A stretch of 64,000 nt of DNA from Pseudomonadota bacterium. GTDB taxonomy: Bacteria > Pseudomonadota > Gammaproteobacteria > Eutrophobiales > Eutrophobiaceae. Position 1 is the stretch's first letter. Every line of letters begins with the position of its first letter. The stretch lies in contig JAYQJO010000001.1 of the NCBI GenBank assembly GCA_038142205.1, positions 2,176,430-2,240,429 of the forward strand, read 5' to 3'. Shown here piece by piece: positions 11,712 through 15,404 of this stretch. The position numbers and the translations under genes are program-made. The notes below the pieces were generated by a model that had not been told where the DNA came from, searched no databases, and saw only the letters and a program-made list of their open reading frames with translations.

Positions 11712-12383
11712 GTGAATCGTGAACACCGATCGAATCTGATTTCAAAATTGTCAGACGTAATTAACGACGATCGTATAGAACGGCTGCAAGAAGTATTAAA
11801 TCAACGTACCCGTTATCTCACCGTTGTACTCGATGATATCTATCAACCACAAAACTCCAGCGCGGTTATTCGCACTTGTGAATGTATTGGCATACAGGAC
11901 TTGCACATCATAGAAGACAGAAACGCGCATAAAACAAGCCGAGATGTTGTTAAAGGCTCATCAAAATGGATAAGCCTGAATCATCATGATAAGAACCGGA
12001 TTGATTGCATAAAAAAACTAAGAGATAACGATTACAACATCGTTGCAATGACATTAAGCGAAGACAGTATTCCACTTGAGTCTTTACCCATAAATGAAAA
12101 GCTCGCACTCTGTTTCGGTTGTGAGGAAACAGGACTCGACAAAGAAATTGAAGAAAGCGCTGACTATAAAGTACAAATCCCCATACATGGATTTACTCAA
12201 AGCTATAATATTTCCGTCAGTGCCGGCATCAGTCTTTATTACTTATACAATAAAATAAAAACAACAGAACAAAGCTGGCAGCTTAGTAATGCAGAAAAGG
12301 AAGAATTGCTTATTGACTGGCTGAGTAAATCAACACCGACCGGACAGTTCTTACTTGATAAATACAAAGAAGAAATACCTTAA
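11712..12383 (+). CDS. trmH: SpoU/TrmH-family tRNA (guanosine-2'-O)-methyltransferase
   Basis: 223 aa with SPOUT motifs (LTVVLDDIYQPQNSSAVIRTCECIG...). Its stop TAA at 12381-12383 overlaps the end of attC-like site 3. Confidence 0.7.
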   Translation: MNREHRSNLISKLSDVINDDRIERLQEVLNQRTRYLTVVLDDIYQPQNSSAVIRTCECIGIQDLHIIEDRNAHKTSRDVVKGSSKWISLNHHDKNRIDCIKKLRDNDYNIVAMTLSEDSIPLESLPINEKLALCFGCEETGLDKEIEESADYKVQIPIHGFTQSYNISVSAGISLYYLYNKIKTTEQSWQLSNAEKEELLIDWLSKSTPTGQFLLDKYKEEIP

Positions 12384-12440
12384 CGTTTTAACTCAGGGGC
12401 GCGCCGACTAGGCGCGTCGCTTTGGAGTGACTTGTTATGT
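12378..12440 (-). repeat. attC-like recombination site 3 (3' end of cassette 3)
   Basis: Minus-strand reading: R''-like ACATAAC (plus 12434-12440), a central imperfect palindrome GGCGCGCC-GACTA-GGCGCG(T)C, and R'-like GTTAAGG (plus 12378-12384). The plus-strand ends TAACG / CTTGTTATGT are shared with sites 1 and 2. Confidence 0.55.
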
Positions 12441-12782
12441 TGCATTTTCATGCGTTCATTCCCAGCATACCGCAATAGAACCAACCAACAATAGCAACGA
12501 ATGTAATTCCTTTGCCCCATATATAATTTCGCTTTTTCAAACCAAACGTAATTAACCCTATTAAAAGGATAAGAACTGCGACATAAATCAATTTGAACGT
12601 AAGACTATTTACAGGCTCAGTTAATACAGATATAGGGCCGATTATTGCTCCTAGTATAAAAACCCATATTCCTAATGGGTCTGCATCAAACATTGCTAAA
12701 AGTAACATCCCAATTACAAGGGCAAGCATGAGTAATCCCATAAATGTAATGAATGATGTATTTAATTTATCCTGCAACATAA
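12384..12782 (-). mobile_element. Integron gene cassette 3 (about 399 bp)
   Basis: Bounded by the G|TT crossover points of attC sites 2 and 3. It contains one small minus-strand ORF. Confidence 0.5.
12448..12780 (-). CDS. Small 3-TM membrane protein (cassette ORF)
   Basis: 110-aa hydrophobic ORF. Its ATG lies inside the GTTATGT core at the cassette boundary. The stop TGA is 7 nt before the R'' box of attC site 3. No recognisable RBS, so the call is low-confidence. Confidence 0.35.
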   Translation of the reverse strand: MLQDKLNTSFITFMGLLMLALVIGMLLLAMFDADPLGIWVFILGAIIGPISVLTEPVNSLTFKLIYVAVLILLIGLITFGLKKRNYIWGKGITFVAIVGWFYCGMLGMNA

Positions 12783-12831
12783 CGCCTAGCGAACCGGCGG
12801 CGAAGCCGTCGGGTTACGCGCCTTGTTAGAT
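12777..12831 (-). repeat. attC-like recombination site 2 (3' end of cassette 2)
   Basis: Minus-strand R'' ATCTAAC (perfect RYYYAAC; plus 12825-12831) begins 5 nt after the TGA stop of the TIR-like ORF. Internal imperfect palindrome GCGAACCGGCGGC / GCCGTCGGGTTACGC carries 2 extra bases on one arm. R' is GTTATGT (plus 12777-12783). Confidence 0.6.
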
Positions 12832-14012
12832 GTGATTCAGAGTGCAAGTTTCTTCATTTCATTGATGGCTTCAAGTAATCTAATCGTTGCATCGCCGTCT
12901 AAAGTTTCTCCTTGGTACCTTACTTCAAAAAGCCCTTGCAGATTGGATGGTAGCTTAACCCCGTCTTTTACCAACAAAATAAATCTCTTTCCGTAAAGAC
13001 CCATAGCCGCCCCAATTTCTATTAAAACGTTTGGATTAAGCATAACTACTTCATTAGCATCTGAATCTAAGAGTTTTCGTTCATCCTCAACATGTATTAT
13101 TGCGGCGCCACAATCCCTCATGTCCGACATGACTTTTTCTGGTACTGGCTTTGACACCGATTGTTTTTCTACAGATACAACTGGCTCTAACTCACCAAAT
13201 GCAAGTAATTTTTTAATAGGTTCTACGAACTGCTTGTTTTTCCCATGGGTAATAAATACTTTTTTCTTTCGCAGCTCATTTTCCTGCGTGCTTTCGTCAA
13301 CGCGTGAGGAGGCGGCTTGGCTTGAGGAGGAAGACTGATTTACGACGCCTGAATCTTCTTGTTGATCCAGCTCATCATTTTCAAATTCTGCTTCATCTTC
13401 CTCATAGTCATCTTCTTCGGCTGCAGTGGGGATCGCCTTAAGATCAACGTACTGTTTATCTTTAATCTTTTTTAGTAGGCCCAGCCCTTCGGCTCCTTCC
13501 TGGATTAACTTGAACGTCTTTAACGTTCTATCTCGAGGAACATTCATTTCAGCCAGTACGTTAGAGGCAATGTTTTCTTTTGGAAAAGGTGACCCGTCAT
13601 ACTTCCTTAAAAACTCACCGATAATTCTTGGTTTCAACATTGCTTCTTTTTTAGCAATCAAATCATCCCCTTCAATAGTTGGAGTGACAATTCTTTTGCC
13701 TAGTTCTGAAATTTCAATTTCCGCTGAATTATAGCTCCCTGATGTCAGCCCATACGCCGCTGACGCGCCACACAGCATACGGAAGGGACCGGAAGTGGGT
13801 TGCACATCAAGAGCAGCGGCAACATTAAGGGGGCTGGAGGGGTTTGATCCATAGTTATCAGCGATAGCGTTAATAATTTTTAAAGCCTGATCAATTGACA
13901 TGCTTGGTACATCACTTTGCTTTAATGCGACTTTACGCTTCTTGGGTGTCGCTTTTCCTTTCTCAGCTATTTATTTCCCCTAAATTTAAATTTTGCGATT
14001 TTTTACATCTAA
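12783..14012 (-). mobile_element. Integron gene cassette 2 (about 1230 bp) carrying the TIR-like gene
   Basis: Starts with TTAGAT, which is complementary to the R'' box ATCTAAC of its own attC (site 2). This is the expected cassette-circle relationship. Confidence 0.55.
12837..13901 (-). CDS. TIR-like (COG4271 / CAP12-PycTIR-like) domain protein with an uncharacterised N-terminal domain
   Basis: 354 aa. The C-terminal about 130 aa (KKVFITHGKNKQFVEPIKKLL ... NPNVLIEIGAAMGLYGKRFILLVKDGVKLPSNLQGLFEV) fit the conserved pattern of 'predicted nucleotide-binding protein containing TIR-like domain'. The N-terminal about 160 aa match nothing I recognise. An acidic/Ser-rich linker (EEDDYEEDEAEFENDELDQQEDSG...SSSSSQ) lies between them. 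Confidence 0.7.
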   Translation of the reverse strand: MSIDQALKIINAIADNYGSNPSSPLNVAAALDVQPTSGPFRMLCGASAAYGLTSGSYNSAEIEISELGKRIVTPTIEGDDLIAKKEAMLKPRIIGEFLRKYDGSPFPKENIASNVLAEMNVPRDRTLKTFKLIQEGAEGLGLLKKIKDKQYVDLKAIPTAAEEDDYEEDEAEFENDELDQQEDSGVVNQSSSSSQAASSRVDESTQENELRKKKVFITHGKNKQFVEPIKKLLAFGELEPVVSVEKQSVSKPVPEKVMSDMRDCGAAIIHVEDERKLLDSDANEVVMLNPNVLIEIGAAMGLYGKRFILLVKDGVKLPSNLQGLFEVRYQGETLDGDATIRLLEAINEMKKLAL

Positions 14013-14065
14013 CGCCTAAAGCATGGGCGCAGCTTTGCTGCGTCCAATGCCTTTACTTGTTATGG
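14007..14065 (-). repeat. attC-like recombination site 1 (3' end of cassette 1)
   Basis: Minus strand: R''-like CCATAAC (plus 14059-14065), palindrome GCTGCGCCCATGCTTTAGGC / GCTGCGTCCAATGCCTTTAC with extra bases on one arm, and a perfect R' GTTAGAT (plus 14007-14013). The stop codon of the upstream ORF (14053-14055) lies inside the site. Confidence 0.6.
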
Positions 14066-14721
14066 CTTTTGACCTCTTGTATTGATACCTTAGCCATATT
14101 TGTTAGCCAATTTGTTTCGTGTAGGACCATTAAGTAATTTTTTCCATTATGGTTAAACGGCCACTGTGTACCCGGCTTAACATCTTTCAAATGATCACCG
14201 CCTTTACCTGGCAGCGTAACTTGAACATCTGCAGTGTAGTTTGGATTAAAACTGTTAACCCCAAGTGATGCAGTAGTTAAAGGATCAAAGAAAGCACCGC
14301 CTTTCTCTATTTTTGCACCATTGTAATAGGGTTTATCTAGGGGGTTAGATTCAACAGATGATGCAGCCTTTTGGCTTGCTTCTTTCATCAAGCTTGCGTT
14401 TGTCGCTTCTAGCTCTTTGACTTTGCTTTCAAGGTGCGGGATAGTTTTTGGCGTATTTACTAGCCAGCTATGTAGTTTATTATTTTCTAGGGTTAAGTGC
14501 GATATGCGACTTTCAAGGACTTCTACTTTGGCTTTGTATTGCCCTGTCTGAGCTTTTAGATTCTCAACTTCAGCTTTATGTACGTTGAGTTTATTCTCAT
14601 CGAATACGAAAGCAAATGCAGCCCAAGTGATACCTGACACTAAAAACGTATGACCCAATATTGATCTAATTGGGTGATCCTCAAACCAGTTACTCAATCT
14701 TTATTCTCCTTTAGGCCATAA
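14013..14721 (-). mobile_element. Integron gene cassette 1 (about 709 bp), first cassette next to attI
   Basis: Begins TTATGG right after the G of the attI-side GTTATGG core (plus 14716-14722). Its own attC R'' CCATAAC is exactly complementary to that start. A short 5' leader carries the SD AAGGAG. Confidence 0.55.
14053..14697 (-). CDS. Membrane-anchored coiled-coil protein of unknown function (cassette ORF)
   Basis: 214 aa. TTG start preceded by the strong SD AAAGGAGAATAAAGA. N-terminal TM helix (ILGHTFLVSGITWAAFAFVF), a heptad-rich coiled coil of about 70 aa (KAEVENLKAQTGQYKAKVEVLESRISHLTLENNKLH...), and a C-terminal Gly/Asn-rich globular domain of about 100 aa. Confidence 0.55.
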   Translation of the reverse strand: MSNWFEDHPIRSILGHTFLVSGITWAAFAFVFDENKLNVHKAEVENLKAQTGQYKAKVEVLESRISHLTLENNKLHSWLVNTPKTIPHLESKVKELEATNASLMKEASQKAASSVESNPLDKPYYNGAKIEKGGAFFDPLTTASLGVNSFNPNYTADVQVTLPGKGGDHLKDVKPGTQWPFNHNGKNYLMVLHETNWLTNMAKVSIQEVKSHNK

Positions 14722-15005
14722 CTATATTTTAACGGACACTTTGTCCGATATACTGCTATAGATTTTGAAAGTGGACTTCATGAAAACCCTCCTTGTTTCA
14801 ATAAGATATGTGATAGATTAATTATAGTAGCTCTATATCTATAGTGTCCACTTTGCTGTTTTTCATATCTAAATTGAGTATGCCCCTATATTTAAAATAT
14901 CCTCTTAAATGAGGATTTATTTATGATTTATCAATAACATATAATATTTACAGAATTATTCATATCGGACACTTTTTTACTTATAAACCCAAGGAGCGGG
15001 TATTT
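14716..15005. promoter_or_regulatory. Putative attI site and divergent promoter region (leftward Pc-like, rightward intI)
   Basis: The GTTATGG core abuts cassette 1. There are four copies of a GGAC(A)CTTT / GTGGACAC motif (14745, 14775, 14852-14865, 14966). On the minus strand, TGGACA-N18-TATAAT (about 14822-14862) points toward the cassettes. An AAGGAG SD precedes the intI ATG. Confidence 0.4.
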
Positions 15006-15404
15006 ATGCAAACTAAGCGACCTCCAAAGTTACTAGATCAGGTAAGGCAGCAAATTCATTTCCTACATTATTCTAGACAAACAGAAAAAGCATATGTGCA
15101 TTGGGTTCGTCGTTATATTTTATTTCATAATAAACGTCATCCCAAAGACATGGCTGGAGAAGAGTTAGCCCGCTTTTTAAATTATTTAGTGAATAAAGAA
15201 AACGTTTCAGCTTCTACACAAAATCAAGCATTAACTGCAATCATATTTTTGTATAAACAGATCCTAAATATTGATGTTGGAGAAATTCCTGAGTTTCAAT
15301 ACGCACGTAAACCCAAACGCCTTCTGGTTGTATTAAATCAAAATGAAGTTAAACGTGTGTTTGAATTTTTAAATGAACCACATAAAACCATGGTCACTTG
15401 TTAA
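15006..15404 (+). pseudogene. intI: Integron integrase IntI, N-terminal 132-aa fragment (3' truncated)
   Basis: LDQVRQQIHFLHYSRQTEKAYVHWVRRYILFHNKRHPKDMAGEELARFLNYLVNKENVSASTQNQALTAIIFLYKQIL...RLLVVLNQNEVKRVF is near-collinear with the IntI1 N-terminus ([37 protein letters not shown]...). It stops at aa 132 of an expected ~320. The catalytic RHRY region is absent, and djlA follows convergently. Confidence 0.8.

Follow-up and report, generated by a model that had tools for sequence, protein, structure and literature searches.

What might a lone gene be doing in the first cassette of an integron when it begins at a TTG codon and its product belongs to no named family? The question is raised by 64,000 nucleotides (nt) of DNA from a Pseudomonadota bacterium of the gammaproteobacterial family Eutrophobiaceae (GenBank assembly GCA_038142205.1, contig JAYQJO010000001.1, positions 2,176,430 to 2,240,429), a stretch that we call the window and number from its first letter. 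An earlier annotation made from the letters alone, referred to here as the original prediction, described the product as a membrane-anchored coiled-coil protein and hedged among an abortive-infection (Abi)-like membrane effector, a sensor, and a structural protein. We find that the gene belongs to a family carried by several kinds of mobile element, and that its product is predicted to consist of a membrane helix, a long stalk, and a compact head. The reading that we prefer, at a probability of roughly 0.4, is that the protein would be a single-gene, envelope-level anti-phage or exclusion factor that acts from the periplasm without a partner.

Before asking about function, one should establish that the gene exists and where it begins. 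Two features are concerned:

14053 to 14697, minus strand: open reading frame (ORF) of 214 codons (214 amino acids, aa), start TTG at 14697 to 14695, stop TAA at 14055 to 14053, predicted to encode a bitopic stalk-and-head protein of an unnamed family
14706 to 14711, minus strand: Shine–Dalgarno (SD) sequence AAGGAG, 8 nt 5' of the TTG and within the cassette

The original prediction had called this ORF with its TTG start and strong SD, and both the coordinates and a start conserved across the family bear it out. The first in-frame ATG does not occur before residue 104, and MSNWFE, the N-terminus of the window protein, is conserved in all full-length homologues. At the same position, the related loci use TTG (the window, L002, L003, and L008), GTG (L001, L005, and L009), or ATG (L004, L021/L024, and L027), which makes TTG or GTG the initiation codon in 7 of 10 lineages. 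Because the homologues begin at the same codon with any of the three triplets, alignment indicates that the near-cognate start of the window gene is real and recurrent, and recurrent TTG and GTG starts fit a protein that is held at a low dose. Existing gene calls in the family should be treated with some caution: the upstream ATG annotated for P0005 is probably a mistake, since at the conserved position L002 carries AAGGAGG and then TTG, and P0001 has been called 19 residues short, from an internal start.

The next point is whether the gene really is an integron cassette, and where the cassette ends. The boundaries are as follows:

14013 to 14721, minus strand: cassette 1 (709 bp), bounded by the TT of the attI core G/TT and the G of the attC1 R' box
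14007 to 14066, minus strand: attC1, from R'' GCCATAAC to R' GTTAGAT, an imperfect hairpin with bulged bases that holds the stop codon
14714 to 14722, minus strand: attI core and junction GTTATGGCC, with the crossover between 14722 and 14721

In cassette orientation, the order is intI (on the opposite strand), a spacer of about 285 nt with a promoter-like site, a 19-codon ORF, the attI core, and three cassettes, and the array sits between trmH and djlA. The attC sites were set by reading, DNA folding, and cassette-to-cassette comparison. Cassette 1 is bounded by recombination cores, at G followed by TTATGGCC in attI (14722 and 14721) and at G followed by TTAGAT in the R' box of attC1 (14013 and 14012), and a single ORF fills it, with no minus-strand promoter site predicted inside. 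Each attC, in all three cassettes, starts with the exact complement of the first bases of its own cassette (GTTATGGC/GCCATAAC, GTTAGATG/CATCTAAC, and GTTATGTTG/CAACATAAC), which is the signature of a circular cassette inserted at G/TT. The bottom strands of the attC sites fold as R/L-box hairpins with bulged bases: the DNA fold of 14001 to 14068, which covers attC1, reaches -13.9 kcal/mol (z -3.35 against shuffled sequence) with its R and L boxes paired, attC3 gives z -3.23, and attC2 is weaker at z -0.99. Within attC1, as originally described, the TAA of the gene falls between the R'' and L'' boxes. Cores, an attC hairpin, R'' complementarity, and a promoterless single ORF toward the Pc side are all found here, as expected of an integron gene cassette.

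The strongest evidence for the boundaries comes from sequence comparison with two other arrays, L003 and L002, in which orthologous cassettes (71% and 46% protein identity, respectively) lie between attC sites. DNA homology with them starts exactly at GTTATGG and ends in attC, and the sequence upstream of the shared cassette is unrelated, being attI in the window and the end of another attC in L003 and L002. The junction at G/TT and these homology limits confirm that this is the attI-proximal, first cassette, as had been claimed. Because the same cassette is found at attI here and between attC sites there, with its limits at G/TT cores, this comparison shows the gene to be a self-sufficient single-gene mobile unit.

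How large is the family? A word-indexed search returned 12 relatives with 36–100% identity, and repeating it with profiles of the family and of the head domain added almost nothing; a metagenome scan for homologues gave 5 loci only. An exhaustive profile search recovered 287 clusters at 50% identity, 177 of them at E <=1e-10 and 76 at E <=1e-30, nearly all 200–230 aa long, matching the profile end to end and sharing the same layout. The original prediction had left room for the absence of homologues anywhere; the 12 close homologues and 287 family clusters confirm, as far as sequence conservation can, that the window gene is not a chance ORF. The taxa with homologues are Vibrio, Pseudomonas, Methylophaga, Ca. 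Thiodiazotropha, Acidovorax, and the window organism, all of them diderm Proteobacteria. Two copies are disrupted: the one in Vibrio metoecus (L008, 681 to 1335) has a frameshift after codon 32, and codon 141 of the one in Methylophaga (L009, 8001 to 8426) is a premature stop, some 50 nt short of the contig end; these are either decaying copies or assembly errors.

No database that we searched has a name for this family. Against Pfam, NCBIfam, PADLOC, and PHROGs, the window protein matched only sub-threshold coiled-coil families, such as bZIP_1 (PF00170, 20.1 vs a gathering threshold of 27.6) and bZIP_2 (PF07716, 18.3 vs 22.3) in Pfam; a Pfam search with a 113-member family sample gave scattered coiled-coil models, and a profile search of the PDB sequences gave coiled coils. 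The original statement that no family could be recognized therefore stands, and a sizeable family is absent by name from the domain, defence, and phage databases searched. The MSNWFE motif was in no paper found by literature search, and neither NWFE nor Brigantia is present in the supplement of the SCI defence paper. The JGI product names "regulator of replication initiation timing" and "prefoldin subunit 5", given to P0001 and P0002, were considered and set aside as coiled-coil artefacts.

The predicted architecture has three parts:

14602 to 14661, minus strand: transmembrane (TM) helix ILGHTFLVSGITWAAFAFVF, codons 13–32, after the MSNWFE..P..S motif and before a conserved DENK
14368 to 14601, minus strand: leucine-zipper stalk, codons 33–110, two zippers with a hinge TPKTIP (82–87)
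14065 to 14337, minus strand: eight-stranded all-beta head, codons 121–211, with conserved Y124, G133, D138, T141, G146, P163, G176, W179, F181, Y188, W197, and E208

Residues 13–32 form the sole hydrophobic stretch (maximum Kyte–Doolittle value 1.67 in a 19-residue window), in keeping with the single N-terminal TM helix first proposed. The long heptad coiled coil was likewise correctly seen, and it can now be placed at residues ~40–81 and 87–110: the first zipper is a regular heptad repeat from about residue 40 to 81 with Leu or Tyr at d (47, 54, 61, 68, and 75) and Val, Ile, or Asn at a, including Asn72, which is conserved in 80% of members, and the second has L89, V93, L96, N100, and L103. 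Leucine at d combined with asparagine at a is the GCN4 pattern that specifies parallel dimers, and we infer from this modelled pattern that the stalk may be a parallel dimeric, GCN4-like zipper. At 1.5 Å per residue, the ~75 residues of the stalk would reach about 11 nm if straight. The "Gly/Asn-rich C-terminal domain" of the original prediction is right as to the domain, and its Gly/Asn richness proves to be only mild (N 10, G 9, and K 10 of 95 residues).

An AlphaFold model of the full-length protein from a 13-sequence alignment (predicted local distance difference test, pLDDT, 81) shows a helix at 9–81, a break at TPKTIP, a helix at 87–110, a disordered linker at 111–120, and eight beta strands at 125–209. 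The head modelled alone from a 63-sequence alignment reaches pLDDT 94.9 and a predicted TM-score (pTM) of 0.83. Conservation is highest in the motif M-x-N-W-F-E-x-N-P-x-K-S, the TM helix (T17, W25, and F30), DENK, the hinge (W78-L79...P83...P87), and the set of head residues; the linker is unconserved across the family. A Foldseek search of the PDB with the head returned nothing convincing (best E 0.056, TM-score 0.30), and the modelled fold is accordingly scored as new, with no PDB counterpart. In BFVD, the head had only two structural matches, an unnamed 190-aa protein, A0A2D1GNL4 (E 4.8e-5, TM-score 0.67; also aligned with the full-length model at E 5.6e-7), and ORF23 of His1 virus, a "putative transmembrane protein" (E 1.5e-4); both are unannotated predicted structures of 12–17% identity to which homology is not established.

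A TM helix followed by one coiled coil, a proline hinge, and a second coiled coil is also the layout of Rz-type i-spanins, and one might suspect a spanin-like protein or lysis remnant that disrupts the outer membrane or fuses the envelope. There is even a very weak PHROG match to an Rz-like spanin (phrog_739, E 0.17), though at noise level. We consider this origin very improbable: i-spanins lack a 90-aa beta head such as the one found here, no o-spanin or lipoprotein, holin, or endolysin neighbours the gene in any locus examined, and the homologue found in a prophage, described below, lies in the lysogeny region and not in a lysis cassette.

On which side of the membrane does the head lie? Several variants of the family are helpful here. 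In P0126 (L031, 827 to 2152), an N-terminal domain of ~270 aa without a signal peptide precedes one TM helix and the same head; P0149 has MGKKK and a hydrophobic signal-anchor with the head directly behind it; the N-terminal tails of P0153, P0087, P0133, and P0146 are strongly basic; and P0115 and P0148 have an additional N-terminal TM helix and a Lys-rich loop before the canonical TM helix. Because these variants carry a cytoplasmic-type N-domain, a signal-anchor, a basic N-tail, or an extra TM helix with a Lys-rich loop, the stalk and head are probably periplasmic (N-in, C-out). A periplasmic head, if that placement is right, suggests entry blocking or exclusion as a better fit than an Abi effector that senses the cytoplasm. 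The N-domain of P0126 has a weak match to SLOG (PF18306, E 0.0014, below threshold), and this SLOG-like fusion hints at a nucleotide-linked conflict system.

A pointer to function is the company that the homologues keep. Besides the window array, they occur as attC-flanked cassettes (L002, L003, L005, L008, L009, and L036), in islets beside P4-type integrases (Arm-DNA-bind_3 plus Phage_integrase; Acidovorax L004 and the freshwater contigs L021–L026), and in a lambdoid prophage of Pseudomonas neuropathica (L006, with a second contig, L029). In L003 (10701 to 12875), the homologue cassette is immediately followed downstream by PDC-S06 (E 1e-258), and L002 (1 to 5929) holds a Lamassu LmuB-like ATPase, an HNH nuclease, a DruA-domain protein, a PIN toxin pair, and the conflict domains CTD9 and MC5; both arrays are defence-rich. 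In the window, the defence neighbour is the TIR/PDC-S35 product of cassette 2. A co-occurrence with TIR-like cassettes, which had been proposed as worth looking for, is seen in the window array and in no other locus, and no partner gene recurs among the loci examined.

In the prophage, genes for an O-like replication protein, Ant, and CII-like and Cro proteins lie on one strand and a CI-type repressor (helix-turn-helix plus S24) on the other. A gap of 20 nt separates the stop of cI from the homologue, which lies on the same strand (L006, 7060 to 8636; L029, 811 to 2318). The homologue is a low-GC moron (45.5% vs 55% for cI) with a terminator-like hairpin behind it. The rexAB genes of phage lambda also lie downstream of cI, the usual place of exclusion genes that are expressed in lysogens. 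This repressor-co-oriented position in a lysogeny module holds for the L006 and L029 homologues; the window copy is in an integron. Taken together, homologues of the window gene live where anti-phage genes live, and among the three functions between which the original prediction hedged, the context favours a defence-type role.

Several results weigh against an anti-phage protein of the periplasm. The best match in PADLOC-DB v2 (PDC-M09A, E 0.015, 12.8 bits, over the coiled coil) does not place the protein in a known defence family, PHROGs gave coiled-coil noise and no annotated family, and neither experiment nor homology ties it to a protein with proven defence or exclusion activity. The PDB and BFVD searches with the head fold yielded no hint of function. 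With the window protein and the prophage homologue as queries, tblastn found no match in 50,697 deposited phage genomes, and no homologue came from PLSDB plasmids (tblastn) or an IMG/VR scan. The prophage context is known from one prophage type (L006 and L029), and guilt by association is weak in integrons, whose arrays hold many kinds of genes. The periplasmic placement, for its part, depends on a few variant architectures, and the positive-inside rule does not support N-in for the canonical members: lysine plus arginine (K+R) residues flanking the TM helix average 1.1 N-terminally and 2.3 C-terminally, the C side being the start of the Lys/Glu-rich coiled coil.

The higher K+R count on the C flank would suit an Abi-type membrane effector with the opposite orientation (N-out, C-in), in which a cytoplasmic head senses a phage product and the TM helices form a pore or damage the membrane, killing or arresting the cell. 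The TM helix, the N-terminal motif, and DENK are conserved as much as the head or more, which suggests a role for the TM helix beyond anchoring; weak start codons fit a potentially toxic protein, and this reading shares its mobile and defence contexts with the preferred one. TM proteins are moreover known as suicide effectors in defence systems (10.1101/2024.07.02.601686). We nevertheless regard such an effector as unlikely, as P0126, P0149, and the variants with basic tails or an extra TM helix put the head outside, one TM helix within a dimeric zipper is ill suited to pore formation, and Pfam searches found no recognizable sensor or enzymatic domain.

The lack of phage-genome homologues can also be read in favour of an accessory envelope protein unconnected with phages, that is, a periplasmic tether or spacer, a binder of peptidoglycan or the outer membrane, an adhesion or stress factor, or a lysogenic-conversion fitness factor, carried by mobile elements as a niche benefit. 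Most integron cassettes are of unknown and diverse function according to one report (10.64898/2026.03.17.712381), a cassette neighbouring the L005 homologue encodes a BamE-domain envelope protein, and prophage immunity regions express non-defence morons as well. The combination of a TM helix, a zipper, and a small C-terminal domain also resembles the FtsB and FtsL scaffolds. Set against this are the recurrence beside defence genes in three classes of defence-rich carriers, the patchy distribution over Gamma- and Betaproteobacteria, the fact that the gene was never found in a conserved operon with envelope genes among the loci examined, and the absence of Pfam matches to DivIC/FtsB, LysM, OmpA-like, or other envelope domains (for DivIC, PF04977, and FtsL, none at E up to 0.1). 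An envelope role of this kind is, in our view, on the doubtful side.

If the gene is functional, how would it be expressed? Two features upstream of cassette 1 bear on this:

14821 to 14850, minus strand: candidate Pc promoter, TGGACA-18 nt-TATAAT, sigma-70-like with 11 of 12 consensus matches, directed toward the cassettes
14722 to 14781, minus strand: 19-codon leader ORF in attI (MKSTFKIYSSISDKVSVKI and a stop), with its SD AAGGAGG at 14794 to 14788

The site read from 14850 to 14821 is the only strong minus-strand promoter-like site, lies upstream of cassette 1, and has both hexamers conserved in L019, a relative with an intact intI; a putative Pc near cassette 1 had been noted originally, and it is plausible from this arrangement that cassette 1 is the best expressed. 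The core of the leader peptide (FKIY..SDK) and its SD are also kept in the relative with an intact intI. The TAG stop of the leader ends on the G of the attI core, 10 nt before the cassette SD, so terminating ribosomes would reach the initiation region of the cassette. Class 1 integrons have a leader of this kind, ORF-11, and by analogy the leader here may be a translation-coupling leader. The TTG start would then moderate the protein dose. Repeats of GTGTCCG, CGGACA, and GTGGACA around attI may be candidate IntI-binding sites.

Under the preferred reading, in which the protein excludes phages from the periplasm, these parts could work together as follows. The gene would be a functional, horizontally mobile single-gene module, transcribed from the Pc-like promoter in the attI–intI spacer through the short leader ORF and translated from the strong SD of the cassette and its weak TTG start. 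Its product would be a bitopic inner-membrane protein with the N-terminal MSNWFE peptide in the cytoplasm and one TM helix, continued by a parallel dimeric zipper stalk of ~75 residues with a Pro hinge, a flexible linker, and the compact eight-stranded beta head. The extended stalk would lift the two heads ~10 nm or more above the inner membrane into the periplasm, where the head would engage either a component of the phage tail tip or ejection machinery or some part of the host envelope on which phages depend, and so block genome entry without a cytoplasmic partner, much as superinfection-exclusion proteins do. One may go further and propose a new class of single-protein periplasmic anti-phage sentinel, whose head, at cell-wall height, would seize or jam the tail tip or ejection machinery of the phage while the DNA is still outside the cytoplasm, and which would travel through Gamma- and Betaproteobacteria on integron cassettes, P4-like islets, and the immunity regions of prophages; we offer this extension tentatively, as a possibility with the odds against it.

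The integron itself is not intact, a point that the original prediction missed:

15006 to 15404, plus strand: integron-integrase stump of 132 aa, with the N-terminal SAM-like domain only

The stump matches TIGR02249 over positions 1–121 of 315 (131 bits vs a cut-off of 265), and a profile search found no Phage_integrase catalytic domain in it; its 90%-identity cluster includes many intact 323-aa integrases. In alignment with an intact relative, homology runs across the attI–intI spacer and the first ~131 codons and is lost at ~15397, beside the djlA 3' end; the intact relatives (L019 and L020) adjoin rsmI instead of djlA. With no intact IntI, the integron is defective, and the first position of the cassette is thus a frozen accident and not the result of regulated shuffling. 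The identical window protein occurs in 13 contigs from many samples, and because the same stump and the same three cassettes recur in at least 9 distinct metagenome contigs, the array is taken to be fixed in this lineage.

A truncated intI, a frozen array, and the disrupted copies in L008 and L009 might lead one to see the gene as a decaying, non-functional ORF stranded in a dead integron. This is scarcely credible, given that the reading frame in the window is intact, its start region and SD are conserved, 287 clusters retain the architecture and core residues, and the structure model is confident. Even if the gene has no anti-phage role, the locus neatly illustrates the capture of a cassette at attI and its later freezing by loss of the integrase.

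For completeness, the remaining cassettes of the array are as follows:

12783 to 14012, minus strand: cassette 2, encoding a 354-aa protein (12837 to 13901), with attC2 at 12832 to 12777
12378 to 12782, minus strand: cassette 3, encoding a small multi-TM protein (12448 to 12780), with attC3 at 12442 to 12378

The product of cassette 2 has a C-terminal TIR domain of the CAP12/Pycsar type (PF10137, 3e-18) and matches the PADLOC candidate single-gene system PDC-S35 (1e-15); its N-terminal ~170 aa and acidic linker had no match. The protein of cassette 3 is 97–110 aa long, multi-TM, and of no family, and the ATG of its longest ORF falls within GTTATGT, the R' box of attC2. The convergent gene trmH (11712 to 12383) has a stop codon that overlaps the R' box of attC3. 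An Rfam scan of the window gave no match.

Why should one care about such a gene? It is found alone in three kinds of mobile carrier, including a repressor-adjacent prophage slot, and is therefore a cheap candidate, consisting of one small gene. If entry were indeed blocked from the periplasm, bacterial immunity would gain a mechanistically distinct layer at the level of the envelope, and a new protein fold would acquire a defined binding role.

It remains to compare the family with known systems. Lactococcal Sie2009 lies beside a repressor and lambda rexAB downstream of cI; the L006/L029 homologue lies directly downstream of a CI-type repressor, on the same strand. Like Sie2009, the window-family protein is small and has an N-terminal membrane anchor; RexB, in contrast, is polytopic and needs RexA. 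No annotated PHROG or PADLOC family resembles it in sequence or profile. With FtsB, FtsL, DivIC, and the GCN4 zippers, the window protein has in common a bitopic layout in which a short cytoplasmic tail and a TM helix precede a zipper with Asn at a; the window family differs in its lack of a basic region, its mobile and patchy distribution, and its larger, unrelated C-terminal domain.

Recent work has shown that many integron cassettes are compact phage-defence genes, with most still of unknown function, and in one study about one third of the experimentally validated phage-resistance cassettes carry TM helices. One of these, Deva (BrcWGS21), is proposed to block genome injection, and the T7 mutants that escape it are altered in tail and ejected proteins (10.1101/2024.07.02.601719). 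Brigantia is a TM-only defence cassette (10.1101/2024.07.02.601686), and a further report describes LDILCD_22380 as another (10.64898/2026.03.17.712381). Compared by description only, all three are like the window cassette in being single-gene and in encoding a membrane protein without recognizable domains, though Deva is modelled as an octameric pore, in contrast to the one-TM zipper stalk and beta head predicted here. The kind is already known, both as single-gene membrane-protein cassettes and as immunity-region morons, and the cassette itself is ordinary integron biology; its protein is a member of an unnamed family with a head fold that, as modelled, is new.

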